Below are positions 1-16,399 of a stretch of DNA of 39,687 bases, one piece after another. The stretch's first letter is position 1. The number at the start of each line of letters is the position of its first letter. Below the pieces are notes generated by a model, which had not been told where the DNA came from, made no database searches, and saw nothing but the letters and a program-made list of their open reading frames with translations. This stretch comes from a virus. Its lineage: Duplodnaviria; Caudoviricetes. The DNA lies in the IMG/VR virus record IMGVR_UViG_3300017747_002332, positions 1-39,687 of that record; one strand, 5' to 3'. The translations under genes and the position numbers were made by a program.

Positions 1-153
1 GTCGCATTCCGCCTCTGCATCTTCGATACATTTTCCACCTGCTAGGTTGGTGCATGAACAGCCTGGATGCCCATTCTCACACTCTGGAAATGTATACTCT
101 GGCATTTCCTCCCATACGTGGATACGTATGTATTCAGCTGTACCGTATGTCAT
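1..153 (-). CDS. Small early hypothetical protein, Cys-rich (partial, runs off left edge)
   Basis: Own translation from ATG at 153: MTYGTAEYIRIHVWEEMPEYTFPECENGHPGCSC...; preceded by AGAAAGGT leader and hairpin 182-201; not in ORF track. Confidence 0.7.
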   Translation of the reverse strand, partial: MTYGTAEYIRIHVWEEMPEYTFPECENGHPGCSCTNLAGGKCIEDAEAECD

Positions 154-215
154 ATCTAACCACCTGATACCTTTCTAGAATGCAGGGTATTTCTACCCTG
201 CTATACCTGCCGATT

Positions 216-506
216 CTATTCTGCGTCTTCGTCTTCGCCTTCTTCGTCTTCGCCTTCTACATCTTCGTTTACAGCGTCTGCGATTTCACGCCAATCTACC
301 GTACCCATAAAGCTGTTGACGATATCGCCTATGAAACCCTGGAATACTTTACCCACGCTATTTTCCAAGTATTCTGAAACGTATTCTTCGCAATAATCAG
401 CTGTTACACGCTCGTTGTTATCCTGAGCTTGTTCTGCCATATCATCGACAAACCAATTGCGTACCGTCCAAGTTTCCTTATTCGCCCAGCCGTTATAATC
501 TGCCAT
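216..506 (-). CDS. Acidic early protein of the phage YNGWxNxETW family
   Basis: N-terminal YNGWANKETW motif common in small phage proteins; very acidic tail; strong RBS. Confidence 0.8.
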   Translation of the reverse strand: MADYNGWANKETWTVRNWFVDDMAEQAQDNNERVTADYCEEYVSEYLENSVGKVFQGFIGDIVNSFMGTVDWREIADAVNEDVEGEDEEGEDEDAE

Positions 507-564
507 ACCTACCTACCTTTCTATGGTGCAGGGTATTTCTACCCTGCGATTACTACCCTAGTGT

Positions 565-828
565 TTACCTACCTGCTGCCCGTACATTATCAATCGTGCT
601 GCGTATCTGCATTTCTTCGGATTTGGTAATCTTGACATTTGCAATTACTTTGCAGATTATTGAATGAATAGAAGCATCTACCTTTATGCCTTCTCTCATT
701 ATCCTGCCTTTGCATTCATAGAGGGTTTCAAATGGAATGATGGATACTACTTTACGTGTATAAGTATCGTAATTGATACCTGGATTATCGTTGTGATTTA
801 TGTGAACAATTCCTGATACGTGAATCAT
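565..828 (-). CDS. Hypothetical early protein
   Basis: 87-aa ORF with AGAAAGGTAGTAGGTAGGTAG leader and hairpin 855-874. Confidence 0.7.
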   Translation of the reverse strand: MIHVSGIVHINHNDNPGINYDTYTRKVVSIIPFETLYECKGRIMREGIKVDASIHSIICKVIANVKITKSEEMQIRSTIDNVRAAGR

Positions 829-891
829 CTACCTACCTACTACCTTTCTAGAATGCAGGGTATTTCTACCCTGCTAACTACCTACACTTAG

Positions 892-936
892 ATGATACTA
901 CATCATACGGTAGATGTAAATGTGAGATATCTCACA
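892..936 (-). promoter_or_regulatory. Sigma70-type promoter with upstream TGTGA-N6-TCACA palindrome
   Basis: -35 TTTACA (920-915), 17 bp spacer, -10 TATCAT (897-892); perfect palindrome TGTGAGATATCTCACA at 921-936. Confidence 0.7.
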
Positions 937-1080
937 ATCGATTACCCTGCTACCTGCTATCCTGCTGCAGGTTTTACCCTGAGATTTGGATTTGTATATT
1001 GTGCTAACCTGCTACCCTGCTATAGGTAACTGGTATCGTGTTAGATGCTGCAGGGTATATGCTACCCTGCAACCTTTCTA

Positions 1081-1347
1081 TTACCCTGCGTTATCCCACG
1101 CTATATCCCCATTATCATCTACCGCCCAGTCTGTTATGCTATATCCGGATTTACTTTCCAGCTGATTGTAGATATAGGCTGCCGCGTACGTGGTAGGCAT
1201 ACTTTCGTATAGCCCAGGTTTATAGTATCGTTGCATTTTGCATAGCCTGGCATACTCCCTTGACATCATGCCATTATGGTAATGCGTACAATACCAGTAA
1301 TGAGCTTGCACGATATCTACCCTATCGTAATCAAATCCAGCTACCAT
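1081..1347 (-). CDS. Hypothetical early protein (Tyr/His-rich)
   Basis: 88-aa ORF, GCAGGTAGGTAG leader, hairpin 1370-1396. Confidence 0.75.
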   Translation of the reverse strand: MVAGFDYDRVDIVQAHYWYCTHYHNGMMSREYARLCKMQRYYKPGLYESMPTTYAAAYIYNQLESKSGYSITDWAVDDNGDIAWDNAG

Positions 1348-1421
1348 CTACCTACCTGCTAACCTTTCCGCAGGGTATACGCTGGGCATACCCTGCTAAC
1401 CTACCATCTACCTACTACCTG

Positions 1422-1745
1422 CTAGAATGCCCCACGCTCGCCCGTCAAATGACGCAGGTACAAAGCTTTGTTTATATCTACGCCTTTCTCGCATACCGAT
1501 AGGTATTTTGTACCGTCTGGTTTACGCTTGACATTATAAACAGCTACCGTATCACCCATAGGGTTATCATCGGAATATTCCGATACCTTGACATAACCAA
1601 TTGCCCAGCCACGTCCGAATTTGTTCGCCTCTGCTAGTATGCTACGCTTGCATTCTTTCAGGGTATCAATTTGCTTTCCGCCTATGCCTACATGACGGGT
1701 TGCATAATACATTTCTTGGCTTTCTGAATACGTCCAACGATACAT
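1422..1745 (-). CDS. Hypothetical early protein
   Basis: ORF 1422-1763; start refined to ATG 1745 (MYRWTY) after GAAAGGTAGGT RBS. Confidence 0.75.
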   Translation of the reverse strand: MYRWTYSESQEMYYATRHVGIGGKQIDTLKECKRSILAEANKFGRGWAIGYVKVSEYSDDNPMGDTVAVYNVKRKPDGTKYLSVCEKGVDINKALYLRHLTGERGAF

Positions 1746-1811
1746 GATAAACCTACCTTTCAAGATTGCAGGGTATACAATCCTGGCATATACCCTGCCG
1801 ATACTATCTAC

Positions 1812-2012
1812 CTACTTTGTAAATACCATCATTACATTTGGTGCATATGCACGTACCCGTACCACGTCCGATTTTATGCGCAGTAATTCCGTACCAGATA
1901 GGCGTATCTGATTTGTAACCTTCCCTGCAGCATCCTGCCACATCCAAACAAATGCCCACGTCCCATCATCTACCAGAGCTTGCAAGCGTTTTGCGCTAAC
2001 TGATTTTCCCAT
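1812..2012 (-). CDS. Hypothetical early protein
   Basis: 66-aa ORF with GAAAGGTAGGTAG leader and hairpin 2034-2059. Confidence 0.7.
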   Translation of the reverse strand: MGKSVSAKRLQALVDDGTWAFVWMWQDAAGKVTNQIRLSGTELLRIKSDVVRVRAYAPNVMMVFTK

Positions 2013-2075
2013 ATCTACCTACCTTTCAAGCTTGCAGGGTACGGTATGCCATACCCTGCGGATACCATCTACCTA

Positions 2076-2309
2076 TTATCTACCTGCTGGTAAATCCTTT
2101 ACATCATAGAATGGTGTACTAGGATTTGTTACGTATAAGGCATCACCATACCCACGTAGGTATGCCAAAGCTTCGGACGAATTCCCACCAAATAACCTGC
2201 GTCCTGACTTGGTGTAAAAGTTTATAATGTACCCTGGCATACCGGATTGAATTTGAGAATCCAAATTATAACGTGATACCAATTCCCTGATTTGTGCTAT
2301 CTTTGACAT
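2076..2309 (-). CDS. Hypothetical early protein
   Basis: 77-aa ORF with AGAAAGGTT leader and hairpin 2329-2349. Confidence 0.75.
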   Translation of the reverse strand: MSKIAQIRELVSRYNLDSQIQSGMPGYIINFYTKSGRRLFGGNSSEALAYLRGYGDALYVTNPSTPFYDVKDLPAGR

Positions 2310-2369
2310 GATGTAACCTTTCTATATAGCAGGGTGATATACACCCTGCATTTACCTACCTGCTAGCTG

Positions 2370-2639
2370 TTAGCCTTTCCTGCATTTATCTAGATGTAAC
2401 GTACCTATGAATACGCCCACATTATCTTTTTCGTAATACTCGGATGTATCGGATTTGAAACCCGTATAACGTACACCATTTACCCGTACCGTACACGTTG
2501 CAAAATTGCCCAGGCTTTCGTAGTAATCAACCTTTCGTATTTTGTTATACGCTTTCCCATTTACCGTACCGACAACCCGTACGGTATTACCTGGAATAAT
2601 CCAACGGGAACCGCTATTATTCAGATACAAAGCTCTCAT
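2370..2639 (-). CDS. Hypothetical early protein
   Basis: 89-aa ORF with AGAAAGGTT leader. Confidence 0.75.
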   Translation of the reverse strand: MRALYLNNSGSRWIIPGNTVRVVGTVNGKAYNKIRKVDYYESLGNFATCTVRVNGVRYTGFKSDTSEYYEKDNVGVFIGTLHLDKCRKG

Positions 2640-2659
2640 GATGTAAACCTTTCTACTTT

Positions 2660-2893
2660 CTATTCAGTATCCCCATACTCTGATTTGTATATACAATCCT
2701 GGCATATGGTGCATTTATCTTCGCCTTGTGACGGGATGTGTACTACCGTTACGTCATAGCACGTATGGTACATATCGCAATATTCACAACGTGCGAAATA
2801 ACTACCTGATTCAAAATCAGCCGTACCTACAAATTCGGAAATACCATCTACGTAATTCTGGGCGTAATGTGTAATACGCATTTCATCTACCAT
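2660..2893 (-). CDS. Small CxxC...CxxC (putative zinc-binding) early protein
   Basis: CEYC and CTICQDC motifs; GGAAAGGGTAGGT leader. Confidence 0.7.
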   Translation of the reverse strand: MVDEMRITHYAQNYVDGISEFVGTADFESGSYFARCEYCDMYHTCYDVTVVHIPSQGEDKCTICQDCIYKSEYGDTE

Positions 2894-2926
2894 TTGAATA
2901 ACCTACCCTTTCCTGCTAACACTATG

Positions 2927-2971
2927 ATGATACCAGATGATACGGTATATGCTAGTGTTAGAAATATCACA
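2927..2971 (-). promoter_or_regulatory. Second early promoter, same architecture as 892-936
   Basis: TGTGA-TATTTC-TAACA directly upstream of CTAGCA, 17 bp spacer (TATACCGTATCATCTGG), then TATCAT. Confidence 0.55.
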
Positions 2972-2973
2972 AC

Positions 2974-3108
2974 CTATTTGCCGAAATGCAGCATCCAAAT
3001 TCCACAATACATGATGTATGCGACAGCTAGCGATACTACTCCCTGTAGTAAACCGATAATGATGGTACGGGTACGCTTTCCTGCGTTATATGACGGTTGA
3101 TGATACAT
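2974..3108 (-). CDS. Small single-pass membrane protein (44 aa)
   Basis: Own translation MYHQPSYNAGKRTRTIIIGLLQGVVSLAVAYIMYCGIWMLHFGK; GAAAGGT RBS and hairpin 3131-3155; below ORF-track cutoff. Confidence 0.7.
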   Translation of the reverse strand: MYHQPSYNAGKRTRTIIIGLLQGVVSLAVAYIMYCGIWMLHFGK

Positions 3109-3168
3109 AATTCTATTACCTTTCAAGCTTGCAGGGTAGATGATACCTACCCTGCGTTATAACCTTTC

Positions 3169-3480
3169 CTAGATGAAAAATGTACGTGCGTTATTTGTGT
3201 ACGTGTTATCTGAGTAATACCAGATGTAATCTTTCTGATAGATAGATGTATTGCAATATGCCCGCAGGATAGCATTTAGTCTAGACTTTGTGGTAGCAGA
3301 TTTATACGTTGTCTTGACGTACATTTCCCTGCCAGATAGCCCATTATCTATCATGCATATCAGATTATTGAACAGGTATACCTGTACACTGTCCCCACAT
3401 ACATCTACCCGGGTATTACTACACGTCCAGGATTTACCCGTACGTATTGCATCTAACATTTTGCGTTCTATTACTCGCAT
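3169..3480 (-). CDS. Conserved phage early protein (MRxIE...TTKSRLNA family)
   Basis: Motifs MRVIERKM, VYLFNNLI, TTKSRLNAIL, IYQKDY recur in aquatic phage proteins. Confidence 0.8.
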   Translation of the reverse strand: MRVIERKMLDAIRTGKSWTCSNTRVDVCGDSVQVYLFNNLICMIDNGLSGREMYVKTTYKSATTKSRLNAILRAYCNTSIYQKDYIWYYSDNTYTNNARTFFI

Positions 3481-3541
3481 TTTCCTACCTGCTACCTTTC
3501 TACTTGCACGGTATTTCTACCCTGCATTTGCCTACCATCTA

Positions 3542-3769
3542 CTAGTCTATTACGTGGTTCCCTGCATCCGCATTTGCTACGTCTGGGTCTATTATGAAAT
3601 CGGATACCTCAGACAACTGGGCGTACATCTGATTAATTACATCCGTAAAACTATCCGACAATTCCGGTACATCCGTACACACTTTGGTAATTGCCAATTG
3701 CACATTACGCAAATTCTGCATGACATGACCCAGCATTTGATGTGCATTTTCCAACGTCTGAATTTCCAT
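3542..3769 (-). CDS. Hypothetical helical early protein
   Basis: ORF 3542-3784; start refined to ATG 3769 after GAAAGGT RBS. Confidence 0.7.
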   Translation of the reverse strand: MEIQTLENAHQMLGHVMQNLRNVQLAITKVCTDVPELSDSFTDVINQMYAQLSEVSDFIIDPDVANADAGNHVID

Positions 3770-3825
3770 TTGTTTACCTTTCATCTAGCAGGGTATGCAT
3801 TTGCATACCCTGCATTTCTACCTTT

Positions 3826-4236
3826 CTAGATGTACCTATTCACCTTCAATTGTGTATTCAGGTATTCATTCACCCTCTGATTTTCCGTACGCCAATGGAA
3901 ATTACACGTTATGCTATAGGCGTAGGTTGTACCTGACACCAATTCCTGATTACCGCTAAATGATTGACTTTCAGGCGTGAAACATAACGCACCATCTTCA
4001 ACAGTCCACACGATAGGATACTCAAAAGCTTGAAATACTTTATTCAAGGCATTTTTCAATTTGACAGTACTACCATTTGTTGCACGTGTAGCAATTGACA
4101 TACCGATAGGACTAAACATAAACAATTCACCATCAAGGTATGCACGAATTTCTTTCCTTTCGGATACCTGCAAGGTAATGTTACCAATGGTGTGATTACC
4201 CGGAACATACATAACGTCCGACAATTTGACTTGCAT
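3826..4236 (-). CDS. Hypothetical early protein
   Basis: ORF 3826-4272; start refined to ATG 4236 (MQVKLS) after AGAAAG-rich leader. Confidence 0.7.
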   Translation of the reverse strand: MQVKLSDVMYVPGNHTIGNITLQVSERKEIRAYLDGELFMFSPIGMSIATRATNGSTVKLKNALNKVFQAFEYPIVWTVEDGALCFTPESQSFSGNQELVSGTTYAYSITCNFHWRTENQRVNEYLNTQLKVNRYI

Positions 4237-4299
4237 TTTCTTTCTACTTTCTACCCTGCCGTATGCGTACATCTGGCAGGGTTATAAACTGATTACTTT

Positions 4300-4539
4300 C
4301 TACTTTGTTGATACCGTATTTCTAACCGACTGGTCAGAATTTGATAATGTCCAAATAATTTGCTTGGCAATTTGGATAGAACGTACCGCATCCATTGCAA
4401 TTCCTTTGGTGATTCTAGGATTATGCAATGCGACAATTGCGGAATTCAATTCCGAGATAGCATTTTGCATTTTGTCAGAGTCTGATTTTTCACCGAATAA
4501 TGTATTCAGTAATTCCTGCTCTGGTGATTTTGTTTCCAT
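4300..4539 (-). CDS. Hypothetical protein, first gene of the leftward array
   Basis: ORF 4300-4761; start refined to ATG 4539 (METKSP) after GGAAAGGTT RBS. Confidence 0.65.
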   Translation of the reverse strand: METKSPEQELLNTLFGEKSDSDKMQNAISELNSAIVALHNPRITKGIAMDAVRSIQIAKQIIWTLSNSDQSVRNTVSTK

Positions 4540-5190
4540 ACTTTGTAACCTTTCCACACAAAGAATATACCGTATCATCCAGAGCCAACGCCACCATTTA
4601 CCACCAGGATTTGATATGAACAAATTCACACGTCCAATACACACATTTTGACTTGACAACCCATCTACAGCTGTGGTATTCACGCGCGCGCGTTCCTTTC
4701 TATACAAATTGAGGACTCCCTTTTTTCTAAAAACTGCGGACTGGGGAGCCGGGTATGGCAAGACCCCCTCCCAGTGAGCAGTTGTTGGTGGGGGGACTCC
4801 GACAGATATATCTACCTATCTCATACATCATCATTTCTCCCATCGTAGAAACATAACGTCTCAACTACATCATCATTTCTACCCTGCGTAATGACTGTTA
4901 GATGTGTCCTATTTGACCTGTATTTGACCAATCTGAGGTCAATTGGTACGTAACGAGTAGTTGTTAGGATGTACTCAGTAAGGCTGGTATACAGTTGGCA
5001 TATCGGGGTAGTAGTACTCAGTAAGGTATCAAATATGCCAACGCACGTAAATACGTGCAAATACGAGCGTAATCGTGCGGTTGCGTGCGGATAGATATTA
5101 TCCAGTGAGTGGATAGATTTGTAATTCGTTTTCAGTAAACTGGCTGCCCTGTAATCGTTTTTACACCTTTGTAATCGTAATATGTGAAAC

Positions 5191-5842: not shown

Positions 5843-5938
5843 ATAAGCAGGCGATACAGGTACATCAGCTTACCAAGCACAAGAGTTTATTTATCTCCAT
5901 TAATTGATGTGCCTGTATCTACTGTATTGTACCGTAGT

Positions 5939-6060
5939 AAAAGATAAGCCACCTAGTGTTCGGCTAGATGGCTTAGAGGAGACAGAGTATAGAAACGGGT
6001 TTTGAACAGTCGGTCGGGTTTTCTGGAGACTTTCTTTCTGTTCTACTACCTTTCGGCAGT
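5939..6060 (-). ncRNA. Candidate sRNA B (~120 nt)
   Basis: TTGCAT-16 bp-TATACT promoter with extended TG (6093-6066); 5' GAAA hairpin 6045-6060; terminator stem 5945-5975 followed by UCUUUU. Confidence 0.55.
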
Positions 6061-6071
6061 AACCTAGTATA

Positions 6072-7394
6072 TCACTCAGGTTGTTCTATGCAAGGTATTT
6101 GACTACAAGCGTGTTTGATACGTGCTTCTGCTATTGCAAGATACTCTTCGTCAAGCTCACATCCTATGAAGCGAAAACCTTCGAGCATTGCTGCTTTGCC
6201 TGTAGAACCAGACCCCATAAAAGGGTCAAGTACTATTCCACCAGGTTGTGTTACTAGACGGCATAGGTACTTCATCAACTCTGTAGGCTTGACCGTTGGG
6301 TGTGGATTTCGTAGTTTAGTAGCCTCTTTAATGACTGTTCCGTTACTACGTATCTGCCCTTCCATACCTTCGTTAAATTGCTTTGCGCCAACCTTTTCTT
6401 CAAAGCCATCTAAGCCTTCTTCTTTATCTCGCTTCGAGGCTTTAGGTACATAGAAGAATCTAGCAGCTGAACCACCATTATCGTCATGTCCAGTTCTAGG
6501 TTGAGGTTTTTTACCACTTAGATGTTGTGTATCTTTGTTGTAAGATACTCCACCGGACTTACTAGGCTTAGTGTCAGGAAACAACTCAAGTACTTCTTCA
6601 CTACCATCATGTATGAAATTGGCTGGCCATCTACCAGCAGGATTGACTGGATTAGCACCTGATAGGTCACTACTATTCTTCCAAGAGTTACCCATCGTGC
6701 CACCTTTTTCACGTATGCGTTCTACTCCAGTAGATAACTTTTCATAGTCTTCATCAGACATAGGTACTCGTGTAGCATCGATATTAATGCCTCCAGTACC
6801 CCACGTTAGTACGTTATTGGCTACCGTACCATCTAGTGGTTTACGTGCCATTGCTATGAACTCTTGACTAGGCTTGAGTGCAGTACCCCAACCTTGCCAT
6901 TGCTTGGCTTCATCTGTCTTAGGCTCGTAAGGACCAACAGGATTACTAGTCAACTTGTTCTCTTGGTCTACATCACACGCTTGATATGACGAGGCTGTAG
7001 GTATTGCACGACCTCGATTAGGGTGACCATACATCTTGTCTATGGATGCAGAGATATTGTGTGACTTTGGAAATCCTGAGGAGTAGTTCCACGTGCAGGA
7101 ATCTCTGATTTCAAAACCAGCATCTTCGATATTGATGGTCATTCGATGGTAAGTACGTGTACTTGAAAAGGATAAAAGGAATCCACCAGGCTTGAGTACC
7201 CGTAGGCACTCTTTCCATATCTCAACACTTGGTACGTCATAGTCCCACTTCTTGGACATAAAGGATATACCGTATGGTGGGTCAGTAACAATCGAGTCTA
7301 CTGAGTTATCTGGCACACCTTTGAGTGAATCAAGGCAGTTGCCTAAGTGGAGTATGTATCTATCTACCAAGCTGGTTCCTCTATCACAATCCAA
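6072..7394 (-). CDS. Orphan N6-adenine/N4-cytosine DNA methyltransferase (beta class)
   Basis: TDPPYG catalytic motif, HPTVKP, VLDPFMGSGSTG SAM-binding motif; true start may be TTG at 7370. Confidence 0.93.
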   Translation of the reverse strand: MDCDRGTSLVDRYILHLGNCLDSLKGVPDNSVDSIVTDPPYGISFMSKKWDYDVPSVEIWKECLRVLKPGGFLLSFSSTRTYHRMTINIEDAGFEIRDSCTWNYSSGFPKSHNISASIDKMYGHPNRGRAIPTASSYQACDVDQENKLTSNPVGPYEPKTDEAKQWQGWGTALKPSQEFIAMARKPLDGTVANNVLTWGTGGINIDATRVPMSDEDYEKLSTGVERIREKGGTMGNSWKNSSDLSGANPVNPAGRWPANFIHDGSEEVLELFPDTKPSKSGGVSYNKDTQHLSGKKPQPRTGHDDNGGSAARFFYVPKASKRDKEEGLDGFEEKVGAKQFNEGMEGQIRSNGTVIKEATKLRNPHPTVKPTELMKYLCRLVTQPGGIVLDPFMGSGSTGKAAMLEGFRFIGCELDEEYLAIAEARIKHACSQIPCIEQPE

Positions 7395-7579
7395 TCATCA
7401 GCAAAGAAGTCTTCAGTGGGCAACGTAAGTCCTTCTATGATGGATTCTTGCTTGTCTATGGTGAATACAAAAGAGTTGAATGCTTCAGACCAACGAAGGT
7501 GAGCCTTCTCACTATCCCAGTGAACACGAGATACTTTCTTGCCTACCGCAATAGCGTTGTAAACCTCGCCAAACGTCAT
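7364..7579 (-). CDS. DUF2829 / Tad2-like anti-defence sponge candidate
   Basis: MxFGE...GKKVSRxxW...DFFADDW pattern typical of DUF2829. Confidence 0.7.
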   Translation of the reverse strand: MTFGEVYNAIAVGKKVSRVHWDSEKAHLRWSEAFNSFVFTIDKQESIIEGLTLPTEDFFADDWIVIEEPAW

Positions 7580-7642
7580 ATTCAGTAATCTCCCTATATT
7601 TACCTTGGTAAAAAACCTTTGCTAACTGAGTTTTACAGATAT

Positions 7643-7679
7643 TTTTAGTAAAGACTTTTAGTAAAGACTTTTAGTAAAG
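7643..7679. repeat. 13-bp tandem repeat TTTTAGTAAAGAC, 2.8 copies
   Basis: Units at 7643-7655, 7656-7668 and 7669-7679. Confidence 0.9.
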
Positions 7680-7757
7680 TGACCCGGCGGTTTGAGCATA
7701 TACAGAGGCTTGCCGGGTTCTATTACATTAACTTATCGTTAAAGTCATATGCATGAG

Positions 7758-7831
7758 AAGCAAAGAGCGGACTCGAACCCCCACCTGCGATGATATATGC
7801 ACCGCTGCCCTACCAATTAGACTACCCTGCT
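7758..7831 (-). tRNA. tRNA-like element with non-canonical anticodon loop (isotype undetermined)
   Basis: AGCAGGG-TA-GTCT-AATTGGTA-GGGC-A-GCGGT-GCATATATC-ATCGC-AGGT-GGGGG-TTCGAGT-CCGCT-CTTTGCT-T; no encoded CCA. Confidence 0.75.
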
Positions 7832-7842
7832 ACTCACTGTCA

Positions 7843-7871
7843 ATCTTACAAGGTTTATCTAAACTTGGCAA
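7843..7871 (-). promoter_or_regulatory. Sigma70 promoter for the tRNA-like element
   Basis: TTGCCA-17 bp-TAAGAT ending 11 nt upstream of the tRNA 5' end. Confidence 0.65.
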
Positions 7872-8241
7872 CTTTCTTTGCAACCGTCTTAGGTTGCGCT
7901 ACAAACTGCTTACCCTTAGCATTACCATCTGCCTTAGCACGATTAGTTGCTGCCTTCTCACCAGACGATAGTGAAGACCAAGCCTTCTCTGGAAGGTATC
8001 GTTTCTTCCCTTGACTAGGACTGCCATCGCTAGTTGTCCACTTCTGTTCAGTCCACTTTGAAAGGCTGTTGTCAGAAGACTTTGGACCTACGTATCCACC
8101 ACCAGATTTCTTGTATTCCTGTACGGCTAATTGACTTTTTCTAGCCGACCATTCACCAGGGTCACCACCCTTGGTAGAGGCTTTTACCTTGGCTACAACA
8201 GCCTTCCATTTGGCTGGATTAGTCTTCTTAGCAACGCTCAT
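7855..8241 (-). CDS. Basic protein, DUF5872-like
   Basis: KGGDPGEWSARKSQL, YKKSGGGY, LSKWTEQKW, RYLPEKAW motifs. Confidence 0.75.
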   Translation of the reverse strand: MSVAKKTNPAKWKAVVAKVKASTKGGDPGEWSARKSQLAVQEYKKSGGGYVGPKSSDNSLSKWTEQKWTTSDGSPSQGKKRYLPEKAWSSLSSGEKAATNRAKADGNAKGKQFVAQPKTVAKKVAKFR

Positions 8242-8413
8242 AAAGCATCATATCAAAGACCTTAGAAGGGTGTAATACCCGGCTATTAGGGGGTAAATAT
8301 TTTGTGGGGGGAGGGGAAAGAATTTTATACCCCTATTAACAAGAATATATACATACTAAATATGTATATAATTACGCACGTGCGAAAGCAGTTGTGTTTA
8401 TGTAAGATGCGTC

Positions 8414-8671
8414 ATGCCATACGTCAACAAGGAACGACCATACAAAAAAGAGTACGCACAACAGGTATCTCGTGGTGAACATCCACTGCGTATGGAACGC
8501 CAAAAGGCACGTCGTTCTATGGACTCCAAAGGTGTTGACCGTACAGGTAAAGACATAGACCACAAGAAGCCACTTTCAAAGGGTGGTACTAACTCAGCCA
8601 GCAACCTTAGACTGGTTCAACCTAAAACCAATCGAAGCTTCAAACGTAACCCTGACAGTAGTGTCAAGTAA
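8414..8671 (+). CDS. Small HNH endonuclease-like protein
   Basis: DIDHKKPLSKGGTN...NLRLV...NRS. Confidence 0.85.
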   Translation: MPYVNKERPYKKEYAQQVSRGEHPLRMERQKARRSMDSKGVDRTGKDIDHKKPLSKGGTNSASNLRLVQPKTNRSFKRNPDSSVK

Positions 8672-8701
8672 GTTGTGGTATACTGGCACTGATGACAGGT
8701 A

Positions 8702-8995
8702 ATGTCAGAGGAGTTAGTGATGAAGTTAATTGGTTTTTCAAGGGATTCTGAAGTTGAGGTTGTTATCAACCCTTCAACCCCTGGTACATACGACGTATCG
8801 TTTGCAACGCAAGATGGCATCAATATCGAGTGTGGTTTGTCAGCTGGTGATGCTTGGTTGCAGATTCGCACATCTGGACTCAAGGTTCCTGCTAAGTTGA
8901 TGTTGGACTTTGCTGAACTTGCAGTAGCCTCTTTACTCAAGAGTAAATCAAACTACAACGTGACACTCAAGCCAGAGGTGTCTAATGCTGAATAG
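8702..8995 (+). CDS. Hypothetical protein
   Basis: 97-aa ORF overlapping the ssb start. Confidence 0.7.
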   Translation: MSEELVMKLIGFSRDSEVEVVINPSTPGTYDVSFATQDGINIECGLSAGDAWLQIRTSGLKVPAKLMLDFAELAVASLLKSKSNYNVTLKPEVSNAE

Positions 8996-9374
8996 GGTTA
9001 TTCTTGTAGGTCGCTTAGTTGCTGACCCTGAGCATCGTATGACTCAGACTGGTAAGGGTGTAGCCAACCTTCGTGTTGCAGTAGACCGCAAGGGTCGAGA
9101 GAAAGAAACGGATTTCTTCGATGTTACAGCTTGGGGTCAGTCTGCGGATTTCGCTTCTACATACCTTTCTAAGGGTAGACTTGTTGCTGTTGAAGGTCGT
9201 TTGCAGGTTCGCCAATACACTGATAAAGACAACCAACAACGTAAAGTATGGGAAGTTGTTGCTGATACGATTCAGCCTTTGGATAGTGGAAAGACTAGAG
9301 AACCGGGTCAACCGGGTCAGTCGGCAAATTCTGCACCTGTAGCAATGGATGACATATCGGACCCGTTCGGTTAG
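8985..9374 (+). CDS. ssb: Single-stranded DNA-binding protein
   Basis: NRVILVGRLVADPE, DFFDVTAWG, KGRLVAVEGRLQ, acidic DDISDPF tail. Confidence 0.96.
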   Translation: MLNRVILVGRLVADPEHRMTQTGKGVANLRVAVDRKGREKETDFFDVTAWGQSADFASTYLSKGRLVAVEGRLQVRQYTDKDNQQRKVWEVVADTIQPLDSGKTREPGQPGQSANSAPVAMDDISDPFG

Positions 9375-9804
9375 GTGTCCATAACTCAAGCTTTATAAAG
9401 TAACTAAGAGGAATGAAAACTGACTGCGCTTCGTCAAACTCATTCCTCTTTACTCTTGGTCCAGCTAGCCTTGATTCTAGGTTAGGCATTCCTTGGACTT
9501 CGGTTATGTAATCACCATCAGTGAACTCTGTTAGTAGTATTGCATACCCATCATAACTACGTAGGTAATCCCACTTTGACTTGGTAATCATCACGTCAGG
9601 GTAAGTCCCAAAACTATGCGTACGTTGCTTGTATTCGCATATTCCAGATAACTCAGGGGTAGACCAGTTAATGTCGTGTTTGCAAGTCTTTGACGTTATT
9701 GCTACGTCACACTCGCCGAATATGCAGAACAGCCTTCCTTGTAGTTTGAGTGCTGCATATGCTTGTGCCTGTCTATTGGCAGGTGTCTCAAATAACTTAC
9801 GCAT
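9295..9804 (-). CDS. PD-(D/E)XK-like nuclease candidate
   Basis: HD...ICEYKQR...YPDVMITKSKW pattern; start refined to ATG 9804; 3' end overlaps ssb by 80 nt. Confidence 0.6.
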   Translation of the reverse strand: MRKLFETPANRQAQAYAALKLQGRLFCIFGECDVAITSKTCKHDINWSTPELSGICEYKQRTHSFGTYPDVMITKSKWDYLRSYDGYAILLTEFTDGDYITEVQGMPNLESRLAGPRVKRNEFDEAQSVFIPLSYFIKLELWTPNRTGPICHPLLQVQNLPTDPVDPVL

Positions 9805-9825
9805 ACTTGATTCTATAGGAACAAC

Positions 9826-10488
9826 ATGAACGAAGTAAGAACAATCTGGTCTACTCCAGATGCTGAAGGACACATTTGTTATTGTGCTAGAGTTTCTTCT
9901 AGCACTCAGTCCAATAGGACTGAAAAAGAGAATAAGCGTCTACTGAAGTACTGTATGCGTAATGGTCATTGGTCTATCTTTGAAATGGCTAACTGGACAA
10001 TCGAGATAAAGACTAGTAGGATGGTTAGCCGTCAGTTTATACGTCACTCAAGTATTAGAGTGCAGGAGTTTAGTCAACGATATGCGGAAGTCAAGGATAG
10101 CATTACACCTCCAGAGATGCGTGGAAAGCATCCTTACAATCGACAGATGTCCGTACCTCTGTCTACTGATATCCAGGTATATGCTGACCACATTGTTTCT
10201 GACGCAATTCGCAAGATTGAAGACGCATATGATTCTTTGATTGAGTGCGGAGTAGCCTACGAAACCGCTAGGGCTATCCTGCCTGAGTGTACGCCTACAA
10301 AGGTATACGCTAACTCATACATTCGTAATTGGATTCACTATATGAACGTGCGTAGAGGCAACGGTACGCAGAGTGAACACGAAGACCTTGCCAATAAGAT
10401 ATTCGCTGAGTTCAAAGTACAGTTTCCATTTATTGCTGAAGTAATGGAAGAGATGGAAGAAGAGAAGAATGTTCAACCTACTGTTTAA
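9826..10488 (+). CDS. thyX: FAD-dependent thymidylate synthase
   Basis: GHWSIFE, RQFIRH...QEFSQRY, ETARAILP, RNWIHY motifs. Confidence 0.94.
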   Translation: MNEVRTIWSTPDAEGHICYCARVSSSTQSNRTEKENKRLLKYCMRNGHWSIFEMANWTIEIKTSRMVSRQFIRHSSIRVQEFSQRYAEVKDSITPPEMRGKHPYNRQMSVPLSTDIQVYADHIVSDAIRKIEDAYDSLIECGVAYETARAILPECTPTKVYANSYIRNWIHYMNVRRGNGTQSEHEDLANKIFAEFKVQFPFIAEVMEEMEEEKNVQPTV

Positions 10489-10891
10489 GGAAGCTTGTGT
10501 TCCTACTAGGGCTACATCTGGTGCAGCTGGATTTGACCTATACGCACTCGATGACTATGAGTTGAGTGATGGTCAAGTAATCGTCGTGTCTACGGGTGTG
10601 TCTGTAGATATTCCTGATGGTCACTACGCTATGGTTTGCTCACGCTCAGGGCTTGCTGCCAAGTATGGTGTATTCGTACTGAATGCACCCGGCATTATTG
10701 ACTCAGACTATAAGCTTGAGATTAAGGTAATCCTGTCTAAGGTTCCTAATGGAAAGAATACATCTAAGTTCAATATCAATCAGGGTGACCGTATTGCTCA
10801 ACTAGTATTCGCTAAGTGTGATGCTGACGTGTATCCACGTATGACTAGTGATGCTGTACGAACAGGTGGGTTAGGCTCTACCGGGATGTAA
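10469..10891 (+). CDS. dut: Trimeric dUTP diphosphatase
   Basis: AGFDL, RSGLA, GIIDSDY, DRIAQL, RTGGLGSTG (motifs I-V). Confidence 0.96.
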   Translation: MFNLLFKEACVPTRATSGAAGFDLYALDDYELSDGQVIVVSTGVSVDIPDGHYAMVCSRSGLAAKYGVFVLNAPGIIDSDYKLEIKVILSKVPNGKNTSKFNINQGDRIAQLVFAKCDADVYPRMTSDAVRTGGLGSTGM

Positions 10892-10985
10892 AAGCAACAG
10901 AGCCAGCCGCTGGGAGTACGACTGGCTCTATCTAGGTAGAAAGGTTATCTGAATCAGGTTGGTAGGTAGGTAGCAATCCAGACGT
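10890..10985 (-). ncRNA. Candidate sRNA C, antisense to early-gene leaders (~95 nt)
   Basis: TTGCCA-16 bp-TATACT promoter (11017-10990); 8-bp stem presenting GCUACCUACCUACC; single-stranded UAACCUUUCUACCUA; 11-bp terminator stem 10899-10929 followed by GUUGCUUUU. Confidence 0.7.
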
Positions 10986-10997
10986 AAGTAGTATACA

Positions 10998-11231
10998 TCA
11001 CGTTTCATCGCTGGCAAGTGACTTGCGATGGTAATCAGCATAATCAAGTGCTAGGTTTATTAGGTAGCGATGACTATCAGCGATATTGCACTTCTTGTAT
11101 ATGTTTTGAAGATGGAAGTGTACTGTCCTTTTAGAGATGAGTAACTTATCTCCAACTTGATTGACCGTTAGTCTATCTATGGCAATCATATGCAGGATGT
11201 CAAGCTCACGCTTGGTGAGGTTGTCAAACAT
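10998..11231 (-). CDS. LuxR/GerE-family HTH transcriptional regulator
   Basis: LTKRELDIL...ISKRTVHFHLQNIYKK. Confidence 0.92.
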   Translation of the reverse strand: MFDNLTKRELDILHMIAIDRLTVNQVGDKLLISKRTVHFHLQNIYKKCNIADSHRYLINLALDYADYHRKSLASDET

Positions 11232-11583
11232 CCCTTGCTCTCCGCTTCAAAGTATTGAACTGAGTCTCAGCCTTTGCTTCATCTTCATAGAAGTAGATGA
11301 CGTTCTGTTGCTTTCCATTAGAGTAGTCTTCTCTATGGAATACAAAGAACTTATAGGTTGGATGCTTGCTTATAGTACCTAGGTTACACACTAGACTATG
11401 ACCAGGACAACGTCCATTGATGCAACCTTCTTCGCAGTATTGCTTGCCTACAAACTTCTCTTGCCACTTAGGTGATACTCCCATAGGTGTACCAAATGTA
11501 CGCTCATCGAGGAGATTGGCTAGGTGTACGATTGCATTGATGTACAAAGGGTCATCAGTTGAAGTGATTAATTTCTGTGCCAT
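11224..11583 (-). CDS. Hypothetical protein
   Basis: 119-aa ORF coupled to the LuxR gene; apparent leaderless start. Confidence 0.75.
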   Translation of the reverse strand: MAQKLITSTDDPLYINAIVHLANLLDERTFGTPMGVSPKWQEKFVGKQYCEEGCINGRCPGHSLVCNLGTISKHPTYKFFVFHREDYSNGKQQNVIYFYEDEAKAETQFNTLKRRARDV

Positions 11584-11635
11584 ATGACAATAATATCAGG
11601 TATGTAATATTAGGGATATACGTTACAATCGTTTT

Positions 11636-11887
11636 ATGGGCGTTGTCAAGAAATACCAGAATCCTAAAGGTGGGTTAAACGCTGCTGGTAGAGCGCATTT
11701 CAAGCGTACTACTGGTGCTAACCTTAAACCGCCAGCACCTAATCCTAAGACACCTAAAGATACTGCAAGGCGTAAGTCTTTTTGCTCTAGGATGGAAGGT
11801 ATGAAGTCTAAACGTACGTCTTCTAAAACGGCTAACGACCCTAATAGCAGAATCAATAAATCCCTAAGAGCTTGGAACTGTAACTAA
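11636..11887 (+). CDS. Small basic protein, DUF6321-like
   Basis: NPKGGLNAAGR...RRKSFCSRM...DPNSRINKSLRAWNC. Confidence 0.75.
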   Translation: MGVVKKYQNPKGGLNAAGRAHFKRTTGANLKPPAPNPKTPKDTARRKSFCSRMEGMKSKRTSSKTANDPNSRINKSLRAWNCN

Positions 11888-12408
11888 TGCCACAAGACCC
11901 TAGTAAATTTCGTAATGAAGATGACTTCCGTCGGTCACTTTATAATGTAGCAAAACCATCTGTTGTGCCTAAGCCAAAAGGTCGTGACACACGTATTACA
12001 GCAACATCTGGAAGTAGTGCTAGTTTTGCACAGTTCCCTAATCGGGCGGCGGCAGTTGCAGAACTGAATCGTTTAAAACAGTTTGACCCTACTAAAGGTG
12101 ATTCAGACTTTGATGGACCATTTAAAGGGACAACATCTGCGTTACGTAAACGAGATGCGTGGGCAGACCCAGTAGATACAGGATATCAAATTGACCCTGA
12201 AAATAAAAAAGCCAGAGCAATGGGATTCACGTCCGTAGTTGATTATATGGGAGCCTTGCAAAATGCAATTGATGGTTACGACAAAACATTAACTAAACAA
12301 AAAAACTATGGAACTACAGCACTTGGTGGTACTCAAGGAGCATATCCAGGACAAAGCAAAATGTCTAAAGCACTTGGCGTAACTAATGAGAAGGCTGGTA
12401 AAAAGTGA
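11887..12408 (+). CDS. Hypothetical protein
   Basis: 173-aa ORF, TAATG coupling. Confidence 0.75.
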   Translation: MPQDPSKFRNEDDFRRSLYNVAKPSVVPKPKGRDTRITATSGSSASFAQFPNRAAAVAELNRLKQFDPTKGDSDFDGPFKGTTSALRKRDAWADPVDTGYQIDPENKKARAMGFTSVVDYMGALQNAIDGYDKTLTKQKNYGTTALGGTQGAYPGQSKMSKALGVTNEKAGKK

Positions 12409-12578
12409 ATAGTAAGGCTCATCCTGGATTCAAGGCAGTCCAAGCAAAGATTGCTAAGAAGTCAGGTGTATCTATGGAAGCAGCTGGTGCTATTCTTGCG
12501 TCAGCAAGCCGTAAGGCTAGTCCTGCTGCAAAGGCTAAGAATCCTGCACTCAAGCGAGTTGCTGGTAGAGGTCGTTAG
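12405..12578 (+). CDS. Small basic Ala/Lys-rich protein (57 aa)
   Basis: Own translation MNSKAHPGFKAVQAKIAKKSGVSMEAAGAILASASRKASPAAKAKNPALKRVAGRGR; fills the gap exactly, GTGA overlap. Confidence 0.75.
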   Translation: MNSKAHPGFKAVQAKIAKKSGVSMEAAGAILASASRKASPAAKAKNPALKRVAGRGR

Positions 12579-12851
12579 ATGCTGAACGAGATGAACAAGC
12601 ATATGAACCATCTTTCTATGGGTACTTTGATGAACGTAGAAATGAAGGAACATAACCTCAAGAAAGCACCTACCAAAACGGAGCTTCTGAAAATGGAGCA
12701 ACGTGAGCATAAGTTAGGCAATCGCCCGACTATGCGACAAGCAATGGAAGCCGAGTACGCAGAGCATTCCAACGCTGAGGGTAAGTTGGTAATCAAACCA
12801 AGTGAAGCGCAGGAATCTAAAGCTACTGCCATTTATAAGAGAAGGAAATAA
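12579..12851 (+). CDS. Small Met-rich ExxEH-repeat protein 1
   Basis: Three ~19-aa repeats ending EMKEH, EQREH, EYAEH. Confidence 0.75.
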   Translation: MLNEMNKHMNHLSMGTLMNVEMKEHNLKKAPTKTELLKMEQREHKLGNRPTMRQAMEAEYAEHSNAEGKLVIKPSEAQESKATAIYKRRK

Positions 12852-12856
12852 CTAAA

Positions 12857-13066
12857 ATGCCAATGGGTATGCCTTATCCTAAGGGAAAGATGTCGATGTC
12901 TAAGATTATGGGAGTTGAGTCCAAGGAGCATAAGGTTCCTATGAAGTCAACGTCCGCAGTTATGAAGGCTGAGACTAAGGAATATGGAAAGCGTCCTGCA
13001 TCTAAGGAAGCAATGATGAAGGGCGAGATGAAAGAGCATCGCTTTATGAAGGGTAAGAAGAAGTAA
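12857..13066 (+). CDS. Small Met/Lys-rich ExxEH-repeat protein 2
   Basis: Repeats ending ESKEH, ETKEY, EMKEH. Confidence 0.75.
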   Translation: MPMGMPYPKGKMSMSKIMGVESKEHKVPMKSTSAVMKAETKEYGKRPASKEAMMKGEMKEHRFMKGKKK

Positions 13067-13572
13067 TGGCTGAAGAGAAAAGTATCTCTAGGAACGTAAT
13101 ACCAAAAGCTTCTGGTACTTATGGTCCTGCATTTGCTGAAAACCCATACGCTTCATCAAATCAACGTAAGATGAAGTCGGGTATGTCTTACGGTATGGGT
13201 AATACTGACAAGTCTGTATTTGGACCATCTAAAGCACCTGAAGGTGGTGGAGATACTCTTAATTTCTTGAGAGCTAATCAAGGTACACCACTAGGCAAGG
13301 CTCTTGCTTATGGCGTTTCCCTTGTTGAACAGTCTGAAAAGAAGGGACAACCTAAAGACAAGTCTGAGTATATGAGGTTGCTCTCCGGTTCTGAAGCGTT
13401 CCGTAAACTTGACCCAGAAGGACAACAGAAGGTTCGACTTGGAATGCAACAATGGTTCCAAACTCAGTCTAAGTTCAATCCAACTAAAGCAATGCAAGTT
13501 AAAAAAGATGAAGAACTTAACCGTCAGAAGGCTGGAGCTAAACAGGCTGCAGATATGATTTCAATCTTCTGA
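13066..13572 (+). CDS. Hypothetical protein
   Basis: 168-aa ORF, TAATG coupling. Confidence 0.75.
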   Translation: MAEEKSISRNVIPKASGTYGPAFAENPYASSNQRKMKSGMSYGMGNTDKSVFGPSKAPEGGGDTLNFLRANQGTPLGKALAYGVSLVEQSEKKGQPKDKSEYMRLLSGSEAFRKLDPEGQQKVRLGMQQWFQTQSKFNPTKAMQVKKDEELNRQKAGAKQAADMISIF

Positions 13573-13821
13573 TTAATCTTTATCTCGATAAGCCTTTAAA
13601 AACTTATCAGTAAACTCAACATCACCACTAGTCAGTTCGTAAACCAAATACCAGAGTGCCTTCATCAAGTCATCTTGACGAGTGGCACTTTCTTTTTTGC
13701 CAGCACGAGATACGTACTTGACTACATTCCCAAGGGCAAATCCTAGTCCCCAGTCACTAATAGCCTCAACTGGTTGGATTGCGCCTTTGCGATAATGGTC
13801 TGGTACTGATATATGTGACAT
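13573..13821 (-). CDS. DUF3310 (SaV-like) protein
   Basis: PDHY...GFALGNVVKYVSRAGKK...DLMKALWYL; start refined to ATG 13821. Confidence 0.88.
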   Translation of the reverse strand: MSHISVPDHYRKGAIQPVEAISDWGLGFALGNVVKYVSRAGKKESATRQDDLMKALWYLVYELTSGDVEFTDKFLKAYRDKD

Positions 13822-13860
13822 AGTAAAAGTATACACTGTCAAAGGTACTAAGTAAAAACA

Positions 13861-14730
13861 TTGAAGCGTTCGTTTAGGTACTACAAAGGGTTTGGTGCTA
13901 AGAAGGATGCGGAAGACCCTGTAACAGAGAAAGACGGCATTCGTTATAAGACACGTAATGGAGGCTTAGTCAAACTATGTGACGCTGAAGTTAGTAAAGG
14001 GTATGTCACCTACAAGTGTAAGAACTTTGCTATTAAGGGGCAACTCTTTTGCCTTCGGCACGGGGGCGTACCAGCAGTCGCTACCACCGACACTATGAAC
14101 TTTACGACTGGATTAAAAAGTAAGATTAACTCTGGTCGTTTTAGGAATGTGGGTTCTAAGTTACTTGGTCGCATTGATGAACTTAGAGAAGACCCTGGCT
14201 TGTGGTCTCTGCGTGATGACGCTGCGTATATCACTGCACTTCTTGATAATCGTGCTGAGGCTGCATCTGAAGGTGTAAGCATTGAGCAATACAAGAAGAT
14301 ACAAGAGATGTATCGTACGTGTTGTGAAAAGCGTTACGCAGATGACTTTTGGGATACTTTTGATGAGTTAGGTAAAGCACTCGAAAACGTAATGAGTGAG
14401 TTTGCAGCTGCTAAAGATGTTATTGAACTCATTGAAAAACGTACGTCTATTGTTGAGACTGAGCAACGATTGTTGCACCAAAAAGCATATACTCTTGAGG
14501 TAGACCAAGCATTTAGCCTTGTGATGCAGATGGTTAAAATCATCCAAGATAACGTCACCAACGCAGAGGAGTTACAGGGTATCAAGGCTGGTGTAGGTAA
14601 GTTGCTTGCTGTCTATCAAGAAACTATTGATGACATGATTATTGATGCTGAGGTAGTTGATGGCACAGAAGAGTCAGGTGAATACGAGGATAACGCCGAA
14701 GGCACTGAAGAAGTTCATTCGTCCGAATAA
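13861..14730 (+). CDS. Terminase small subunit (probable)
   Basis: C...C..AIKG...CxxHGG zinc motif plus helical C-terminus; immediately upstream of the large terminase. Confidence 0.65.
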   Translation: MKRSFRYYKGFGAKKDAEDPVTEKDGIRYKTRNGGLVKLCDAEVSKGYVTYKCKNFAIKGQLFCLRHGGVPAVATTDTMNFTTGLKSKINSGRFRNVGSKLLGRIDELREDPGLWSLRDDAAYITALLDNRAEAASEGVSIEQYKKIQEMYRTCCEKRYADDFWDTFDELGKALENVMSEFAAAKDVIELIEKRTSIVETEQRLLHQKAYTLEVDQAFSLVMQMVKIIQDNVTNAEELQGIKAGVGKLLAVYQETIDDMIIDAEVVDGTEESGEYEDNAEGTEEVHSSE

Positions 14731-16399
14731 GCCTTTGACTGTCGCATTGCTACAAGCGATGCAAGAACGATTTGATGTACAGATAGATGGTAGTGAGTTT
14801 GGTTCAGTAGCAAGTCCTATTGATGGGCATGAGATGGATTACAAGAGGTGGTTAAAGCGTTATGCTCCTCATGCTGCATCTGCACCACTTGCTAAACACC
14901 ATATACGTGCGTGGGAATGGGCTGAGTCTATTGAGGCTAAGAATCCGCCACCTGCCCTTATTGAGTGTTGGTTTCGTGGTGGTGGTAAGTCTACTACGAT
15001 GGAACTTATCTCCAGTCGTATTGCAGTCAAGGCTACTAGACGATTCTTGTTATACGTGTGTTCAACACAGGATGCTGCTAACCGTCACGTCGCCGATATT
15101 GCTAACACGATGGAGAAATGTGGTATCCAGCGAGCCATCAATAAATACGGTTATTCCAAGGGTTGGAATGCTGAGAAACTACGTACTGCTAATGGATTTA
15201 ATATCCTAGCCTTTGGACTTGATACCGGCGCACGTGGTGTCAAGCTTGATAACCTTCGCCCTGACATGATTATCCTCGACGATATTGATGAGTTGGATGA
15301 CTCTGTCAATAGAGTTGAGAAGAAGGTGCAGACTATTACTCAGACTATTCTCCCTGCGAAGAGTACTGATTGTGCGATTGTCTTTGTCCAGAACAGGATT
15401 CACGCTAACTCAGTTATGAGTCGTGTTCTAAGTGGTGAGTTAGATATGTTACAGAACAGAATCCAATCACCAATTGTTCCAGCGATTGAGAACCTAGAGT
15501 ATCAACCTGTTGAGAAGGAAGATGGTCGTACTGGATATAAGATTACTAGTGGTACAGCGAACTGGGAGCATAAGTCTATTGAAGTCTGTCAACGTGAGAT
15601 TGATGACTTTGGAATCATTGCATTCCTTCGAGAGTGTCAGCACGAAGTAGGTGTTGGTGGACGCTTCTTTGGTGACTTCAAAGAGTATGGTCCTGATGGT
15701 GACCCTTGGCACGTTGTTGATGCCGTTGAGTTACAGCCTTGGTGGCGTTACTGGGCAAGCCACGACTTTGGTACTGGTAGTCCAGCTGCATTCATTCTCT
15801 ACGCTAGTGATGAGAAAGAGAACATCTACGCTATTGGAGAGTTCTATGAAGCAGGTCATGTATCATCTAAACAGGCTGATAACGCACTTCTCCTGTTGGA
15901 GAAATTCAAGTTGGGTGAGGCTAATGACAGACGGTTCAAAGAAGGTAAGTGGAATACGAAGTTAGAGGCTATTGCTTTTGACTGGGCTAATACATTTCCT
16001 CCTGAGAATCCTGCACAACGTATTGGTGAGTATCCTGTTGAGATTTGGTGGAAGAAGGGATTGCCTTGTGTAAGGGCGGTCAAAGACCGTAAAGCAGGAT
16101 GGCGTAGGGTAAAGGAATGGTTGATTGCCACTAGAGTAGATGGTGACAAGATAAAGCCTAAGTTACGTATTGTGCGTGATGCTTGCCCTAACCTAATACG
16201 TGAGTTGAATAACACTATGGCTGACCCTAGAGACCCTGAAGATATTGATGGTGGTACTCGTAGTGACCACGCAATTGACTCCTTTAGGTATGGCTTGATG
16301 TGGCGTGAGTATCCGGTGAAATGTCCTGAGACTACAGATATGCAGACGTGGAAGCCTTTATGGGCAGATGATGGTTACGGAAGAAAAGACTACTTGTGA
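14657..16399 (+). CDS. terL: Terminase large subunit
   Basis: Walker A RGGGKST, Walker B IILDD, nuclease motifs SHDFG and DHAIDSFRY. Confidence 0.92.
   Translation: MMAQKSQVNTRITPKALKKFIRPNKPLTVALLQAMQERFDVQIDGSEFGSVASPIDGHEMDYKRWLKRYAPHAASAPLAKHHIRAWEWAESIEAKNPPPALIECWFRGGGKSTTMELISSRIAVKATRRFLLYVCSTQDAANRHVADIANTMEKCGIQRAINKYGYSKGWNAEKLRTANGFNILAFGLDTGARGVKLDNLRPDMIILDDIDELDDSVNRVEKKVQTITQTILPAKSTDCAIVFVQNRIHANSVMSRVLSGELDMLQNRIQSPIVPAIENLEYQPVEKEDGRTGYKITSGTANWEHKSIEVCQREIDDFGIIAFLRECQHEVGVGGRFFGDFKEYGPDGDPWHVVDAVELQPWWRYWASHDFGTGSPAAFILYASDEKENIYAIGEFYEAGHVSSKQADNALLLLEKFKLGEANDRRFKEGKWNTKLEAIAFDWANTFPPENPAQRIGEYPVEIWWKKGLPCVRAVKDRKAGWRRVKEWLIATRVDGDKIKPKLRIVRDACPNLIRELNNTMADPRDPEDIDGGTRSDHAIDSFRYGLMWREYPVKCPETTDMQTWKPLWADDGYGRKDYL

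Follow-up and report, generated by a model that had tools for sequence, protein, structure and literature searches.

A predicted phage RNA complementary to the ribosome-binding sites of early and replication genes

The window, by which we mean the whole 39,687-nt stretch of DNA analyzed here, is a 39.7-kb phage contig with a G+C content of 44.6%. Its main features are listed in Table 1. Most of the early ORFs could not be assigned to a protein family, and the genes of the small-ORF array are presumed to be early because of their small size, strong leaders and host-type promoters. The labelled runs that contained at least one fifth of the window's words were aquatic metagenomes. A search of cultured phages with the terminase gave only partial matches of ~30%, and a search of genome contigs with the SSB gave matches of 38-51% scattered across phyla. 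One SSB-matching phage contig was in a Cyanobium MAG; we took this to be a likely binning accident. An abiF RNA motif (Rfam) lies at 7682-7717 on the minus strand (39.1 bits, above the gathering score) and adjoins a tRNA-Ile with the rare anticodon TAT (7757-7831, minus strand). The short direct repeat ttttagtaaag occurs three times upstream of this motif (7650-7680), and the motif is kept across lineages (L055 13068-13103, L074 8283-8318, and L069 12436-12471).

Table 1. Features of the window around the predicted RNA and its predicted targets.
Feature	Position	Strand	Remarks
Predicted small RNA, ~94 nt (putative ends)	10890..10984	-	hairpin-linker-hairpin layout
-35-like hexamer TTGCCA	11012..11017	-	within the last codons of the HTH gene
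-10 hexamer TATACT	10990..10995	-	just beyond the HTH stop codon
Hairpin 1	10947..10983	-	9-bp stem (10983-10975 with 10955-10947), 19-nt loop with seed 1 CUACCUACCUACC
Unpaired 14-nt linker	10933..10946	-	carries seed 2 AACCUUUCUACCUA
Terminator-like hairpin	10890..10932	-	conserved loop UACUCCCAG (10918-10910), imperfect U tail
LuxR/GerE-type HTH gene	10998..11231	-	Pfam PF00196, E 1.7e-13; directly upstream of the predicted RNA, same strand
dUTPase gene	10469..10891	+	phrog_135; convergent with the predicted RNA
Array of 14 small ORFs, predicted targets	1..4560	-	starts 153, 506, 828, 1347, 1745, 2012, 2309, 2639, 2893, 3108, 3480, 3769, 4236, 4539
Example leader AGAAAGGUAGGUAGGU-AUG	506..523	-	12-nt match to seed 1, 9-nt match to seed 2
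Example leader	828..850	-	12-nt match to seed 1, 9-nt match to seed 2
Example leader	2309..2324	-	11-nt match to seed 2
GCAGGGT...ACCCTGC hairpins	182..3813		9 found by pattern; just upstream of most early leaders
Terminase, portal, capsid genes		+
Mixed middle block			methylase, SSB, ThyX, dUTPase, HTH

The minus strand after the HTH gene has the anatomy of a small RNA gene. An earlier note on this DNA had described a promoter (TTGCCA-16 bp-TATACT), a hairpin, a linker and a terminator at 10890-11017, and all four are present. The C/U-rich loop and the unpaired linker were as described; the stem has 9 bp where 8 had been claimed, and the U tail of the terminator-like hairpin is imperfect (UGUUGCUUUU). 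The promoter-like site agrees with the consensus at 10 of 12 positions and resembles a common sigma-70 site of the host; sites of this kind are by themselves not above chance (23 in positions 1-14000 versus 33.0 ± 5.5 in shuffles). The minus strand folded at -31.2 kcal/mol (z = -4.24) and none of 200 shuffles was as good, whereas for the plus strand (z = -0.30) 73 of 200 shuffles did at least as well. Five lineage versions of the RNA (types named below) had fold z-scores of -4.2 to -5.6, and every version that we folded formed two separate hairpins with the C-rich motifs unpaired, in loops or in the linker. The terminator loop was identical in all type A-D versions and may be a third seed; U tails and terminators are poor in the B and D versions. 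Rfam gave no match at 10890-11017 (E up to 1) or at the E, E2, D2 and F copies (E up to 0.05), and a nucleotide search with the predicted RNA also gave no match.

The RNA is probably a discrete transcript, made either from its own promoter or from the 3' end of the HTH mRNA. Seven of 18 runs were compared with the window, all as assembled contigs. Contigs from RNA libraries span the RNA locus and most of positions 1-16500; such contigs are blind to strand, ends and level, and DNA may be among them. Two of them, both from a single study, terminate close to the promoter (10996 and 11011); we do not count a single study as evidence.

The exposed segments of the RNA are complementary to the leaders of the small-ORF array. 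The GCAGGGT...ACCCTGC hairpins near these leaders are part of a repeated expression cassette in which the interiors vary and the pairing is kept. The early cassettes recombine: in two runs (X1 and X17) there is a joint between 507 and 867, and the gene at 565-828 between two cassettes is missing. All 11 seed matches given in the earlier note were found where it had placed them and with the same lengths. On the plus strand of the window, positions 1-4700 have 16 copies of ACCTTTC and the other 35 kb have 3. The listed matches had been said to cover an RBS or abut an AUG; of the 16 ACCTTTC copies, 12 are just upstream of a start, with three others just past a stop codon (1072, 3162 and 3820) and one within a gene (2530).

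We calculated binding energies as the energy of the duplex plus the cost of opening both RNAs, a windowed approximation of IntaRNA. Against 14 hand-picked array starts, the RNA had energies of -7.4 to -20.7 kcal/mol (median -11.2), at or below -7 in all 14. Late genes are not completely spared, contrary to what had been proposed for the structural genes: the leader of the late gene at 20684 has an 8-nt match to seed 2 (-7.8 kcal/mol), and energies of -8 to -9 kcal/mol occur for a few late leaders. The predicted duplexes with the array leaders span positions -24 to +1, covering the Shine-Dalgarno sequence and often the AUG. In the case of LhrC and RsaE, pairing there blocks initiation, according to the parts of the reports seen (PMC4132741, PMC2790875), which argues against a role in activating or stabilizing the mRNAs or in guiding processing at the repeated hairpins. 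Some seed-2 sites past stop codons are beside cassette hairpins, and the leaders of one lineage (type E) can fold, by eye, GGGG-loop hairpins over the Shine-Dalgarno sequence, as such a role might use; we consider it highly improbable.

The RNA unit is conserved in position and structure within one clade of phages. Using searches with the HTH protein, ThyX, the 119-aa neighbor and the terminase, we found the unit right after the HTH stop codon at 73 loci (many of them repeats of the same contig, and one of them the window), representing 35 distinct contexts and 19 distinct sequence versions, always in the same place. We named the types A, B, C, D/D2, E/E2 and F. On a terminase tree of 22 rows, the 8 carriers of the RNA formed one clade (support 87/93, below the tool's star threshold) with the topology (E,E2),(F,(A,B,C,D,D2)). 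The -10 sequence was TATACT, TATAAT or TAAAAT in 19 of 19 versions; it was demanded by the search pattern, yet had first been seen unprompted. The TTG of the -35 was kept in place in types A-D, type E has TTGAAT with an 18-bp spacer, and the -35 is missing in type F. When further early regions of type F were sought, only an unrelated phage group turned up.

In 13 aligned rows, 94.7% of the cells of helix 1 were paired, G-U variants included, with five of the nine pairs varying on one side and one on both. The structure as a whole was 90.8% paired versus 28-45% in slid controls. Pairs with changes on both sides (three) were not above shuffles (222 of 500). RNAalifold, run on one alignment, recovered helix 1 and missed the terminator because the E and F rows are misaligned there.

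Phages outside the carrier clade have the HTH gene and shared early leaders without the RNA. In the 14 non-carrier rows of the tree, what comes after the HTH gene is a bare terminator, tRNA-like or other sequence, or another gene; four further loci without a usable HTH start were left out of this comparison. The complete sister genome G015 has the same HTH and 119-aa genes and a different shared early leader, AGGAGAAC(A/G)GAC-ATGAC (L257 15500-19900 and L259 1-1800). There was no RNA after its HTH gene and no free-standing complement to the leader anywhere in the genome. Shared leaders can therefore arise without the RNA, and such a tag is no proof of an RNA reader. It is likely that repeated cassettes came first and that one clade later gained an RNA that exploits them.

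These comparisons also bear on whether the GGTA and GAAAGG repeats are DNA operators for the neighboring HTH protein, with the RNA locus being an operator at the end of that protein's own gene. The HTH gene is adjacent and the motif is a direct repeat, as an operator might be. However, the stem works on one strand only, through G-U pairs, the outgroups without the element keep the HTH gene, and the A and C HTH proteins are only ~50% identical, yet share seed 1. We regard operators as an extremely improbable explanation.

The seeds of the RNA change together with the leaders of each lineage. Types A-D have the seeds ACCUACCU and ACCUUUC and the leaders AGGUAGGU and GAAAGGU, type E has the seed CCCCUCC and the leaders GGAGGGG, and type F has the seed ACCUCCUA and the leaders UAGGAGGU, a partial fit. 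Leaders read GAAAGGTAGGTAGGT-ATG in the complete type D genome (G008), (T/G)(T/G)GGAGGGGTTCA or GTGAAGGGGTTCAC in a type E genome (G006), and TAGGAG(A/G)T in the few type F leaders.

Each RNA that we tested was predicted to bind its own early leaders better than the starts of other genes. The median energies for early leaders versus other genes were -10.8 versus -4.6 (A), -11.6 versus -4.5 (C), -15.5 versus -4.8 (D), -7.8 versus -3.7 (E), and -9.4 versus -4.2 kcal/mol (F). The proportions at or below -7 kcal/mol were 12/13 versus 7/34 for type A, 19/20 versus 8/46 for C, 16/18 versus 13/55 for D, 15/25 versus 10/47 for E, and 3/4 versus 8/42 for F. Genes were called by a simple script and some starts are wrong (for example, 2 of 13 calls in the window); start codons were picked with an anti-Shine-Dalgarno score, which favors purine-rich leaders equally in all sets. 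When the loop was shuffled with its composition kept, the real value was reached by 0 of 60 shuffles for type A and 2 of 30 for type E, the weaker case. Gene-level p-values overstate independence because the leaders are duplicated cassettes and because the seed states changed only two to three times on the tree (two major changes and one minor).

Exchanging RNAs between lineages gave the same picture. The RNA of the same lineage beat the E RNA on 12 of 13 leaders in A, 20 of 20 in C and 16 of 18 in D. On type E leaders, the E RNA beat the A RNA in 20 of 25 cases and the C RNA in just 14 of 25. The A, C and D RNAs were interchangeable on each other's leaders (A beat C on 4 of 13), as expected because their seed is shared. 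We also scanned whole genomes for complements to the early leaders, on both strands and at every position outside the array, using ungapped stacking and dropping doubtful gene calls (one in A, three in E and one in H). The RNA locus ranked first in A, second in C, second in D and first in E, and the top sites in C and D were the antisense strand of the tagged leader of a Gam-like gene. The RNA was thus the best free-standing complement in four of the five genomes scanned; the type F RNA was outside the top eight in its own genome, where the scan had only five leaders.

Bases next to the seeds vary with the leaders in some lineages. The type A linker CCUUUC-UA is matched by UA-GAAAGG leaders (7 TA and 1 AT of 14 sites) and the type C linker CCUUUC-AU by AU-GAAAGG leaders (11 AT and 1 TA of 16 sites). 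In type B (L009), the TA predicted by the linker was found in 0 of 5 leaders. The terminator loops ACCCCUUC (E) and ACCCCUCC (E2) mirror the leader of the first early gene in the same type, GAAGGGGT and GGAGGGGT respectively, a relationship that involves one gene. Target enrichment, conservation in relatives and seed/leader co-variation had all been put forward in the earlier note as checks, and each came out in favor of its proposal.

The seeds, which we take to resemble the 3' end of 16S rRNA, could belong to a general anti-Shine-Dalgarno mimic whose main targets are host mRNAs, or any mRNA that is strongly translated, with the match to early leaders a by-product. The F seed is the canonical ACCUCCU, and the conserved terminator loop has few targets in the phage. 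However, the E and F RNAs, which have canonical anti-Shine-Dalgarno-like cores, reached only -4.6 to -6.8 kcal/mol on A, C and D leaders, and it is non-canonical features (the GGUA repeats, and the UA or AU before GAAAGG) that co-vary with phage leaders. We think a general mimic very improbable.

The same co-variation bears on whether the locus simply ends the HTH operon as its 3' UTR and terminator and does nothing in trans, having perhaps originated when an early cassette was copied in inverted orientation. Several observations fit a 3' UTR: the -35 sits in coding sequence, early cassettes recombine, and outgroups have a bare terminator or another gene at this place. A relic, however, would have kept neither its -10 box nor the pairing of its stem, and its seeds would not follow the changes of the leaders in E, F and C. 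The plus strand, moreover, shows no start codon after the motif. A 3' UTR without a function in trans is, in our view, very unlikely.

Several other features of the type E and type F genomes were observed. In two type E phages, a strong promoter is followed by ~700 nt in which no ORF is convincing (L048 2420-3130 and L074 10120-10800). The two stretches have 84% column identity and many hairpins and are a candidate long non-coding RNA; the L074 stretch gave no match in Rfam. Leader hairpins with GGGG loops occur in L048 at 3160-10100 (GTGAA-GGGG-TTCAC, GTAAA-GGGG-TTTAC, and TTGGA-GGGG-TTCAA), and ACCG is common to the spacers of its early promoters. The type F region L004 13700-14577 is palindrome-rich and non-coding. 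It contains GGTTAGGTAAACCGGAGGTTAGGTT at ~13924-13948, which complements the F RNA loop and is possibly a sponge or an extra target of the F RNA.

The tag is also found on core replication genes. One RNA had been proposed to complement the shared leader of about 10 early genes; the complementarity is there, and the set is wider. Tagged orthologues of the replication module include a Gam-like gene (weak PF07352), an HTH_36 initiator, a 126-aa gene and, in C, a C-5 methylase. The leader of the Gam-like gene reads AGGUAGGU(A/A)GGU-AUG in 9 of 10 loci. Its E copy bound the E RNA best (-10.4 versus -3.6 to -6.3), and the leader of the F replication initiator bound the F RNA best (-14.9 versus -6.3 to -8.6). 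The exception was the F Gam-like leader, which bound the E and A RNAs better than the F RNA. Lineage-matched tags on core genes outside the array indicate that cassette duplication alone is insufficient as an explanation. A repeated leader, GGGAGATAAGA-ATG, was seen in an unrelated phage that has a Gam-like gene (L176 8750-10600).

Tags on the replication initiator and the Gam-like gene might also be expected if the RNA, like c4 of P1/P7, were a repressor for immunity or a carrier state, which would silence early and replication genes while the genome is dormant or would block superinfecting relatives that have the same leaders. A host-type sigma-70 promoter needs no phage factor, and lineage-specific seeds would give immunity groups, as reported for c4 in the portion of the source consulted (PMC5320573). 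However, among the scanned proteins of G008 and the window, which included most small ORFs, there was no integrase, partition protein or CI-like repressor, and no antirepressor was found. In addition, the genome collection had no prophage context save one 8.6-kb phage contig in a MAG. We consider an immunity function unlikely.

Exposed bases of the RNA complement the early leaders and change with them between lineages, so the RNA likely blocks translation of that gene set. We believe that it is probably a trans-acting, LhrC-like RNA that occludes the ribosome-binding sites of early and replication genes and turns the set down during infection. Host polymerase would make the RNA and, being stable, it would build up. 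Inside the cell, its loop and linker would seed on the stretch from the Shine-Dalgarno sequence to the AUG of the array and replication mRNAs, and the paired leaders would exclude the 30S subunit. The early phase would then end with most structural genes spared.

Occlusion of Shine-Dalgarno sites by C/U-rich loops is a known mechanism of small RNAs, for example RNAIII of Staphylococcus aureus. Shut-off of early protein synthesis by phages is known mostly from proteins of T4. The closest likeness to the predicted RNA in the parts of the literature seen is LhrC of Listeria monocytogenes, which has two hairpins with a single-stranded stretch between them and C/U-rich sites in loop A, in the stretch and in the terminator loop that pair over the Shine-Dalgarno region (PMC4132741). 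Unlike LhrC, the phage RNA had no sequence family match, its predicted targets are the phage's own genes, and UCCC in types A-D is confined to the terminator loop. RsaE and other UCCC-motif RNAs of S. aureus also use an unpaired C-rich motif to bind the ribosome-binding sites of many mRNAs (PMC2790875, in part), whereas the main seeds of the phage RNA are ACCUACCU and ACCUUUC and switch between lineages together with the targets.

As far as the excerpts go, c4 of P1/P7 is a phage RNA of similar size with two exposed seeds in loops, one of them over an RBS that it occludes, and seed and target change together between related phages (PMC5320573, PMC12197685). It has three stems, is excised by RNase P, acts on one antirepressor operon and serves lysogenic immunity, in contrast to the two hairpins and at least 14 distant predicted targets of the phage RNA. 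Repression as the effect of the RNA is suggested by analogy with LhrC, RsaE and c4.

Ending the early phase, as RegB does in T4, would by analogy be its purpose. The RegB endoribonuclease and the RegA repressor end early translation via a motif in many initiation regions, RegB by cutting Shine-Dalgarno sites; unlike the phage RNA, both are proteins. The consulted part of this 2010 review also states that T4 has no functionally characterized small trans-acting regulatory RNA (PMC3014915). On the target side, the PeSL cassettes of T4-like phages (PMC4122927) and the SAS/ESAS elements of cluster K mycobacteriophages (PMC3203893) are repeated units of hairpin and leader that precede variable small genes and serve as exchange points; no complementary RNA is described in the sections of these two papers that were seen. 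In the window, too, repeated units of stem-loop and RBS flank variable genes and mark a gene loss (507-867). PreS and VpdS have host or mixed targets and act via Hfq (10.1101/2024.10.31.621285, seen in part), and the phage small RNAs in the reviewed extracts regulate host genes or a single operon or depend on Hfq. We found no phage RNA that represses its own early genes in the literature within our scope, which excluded most subscription papers and the table of 38 uncharacterized phage small RNAs in PMC12197685. The mechanism suggested by the sequences would then be a known one, in a regulon-wide phage role that we did not find in print.

We consider it evenly balanced whether a non-integrating phage times its infection with one RNA that reads a tag built into the RBSs of 15-25 genes, early or replicative, and that, as the RNA equivalent of RegB, was gained once and then re-coded together with the tag in each lineage. 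The natural compensatory variants (A/C/D, E, and F) are ready-made orthogonal pairs of RNA and leader that can be tested without culturing the phage. Reading by an RNA offers a testable function for the repeated start-associated leaders in phage genomes and, if our reading is true, motifs that recur near starts in other phages may be address labels that are read by RNA.
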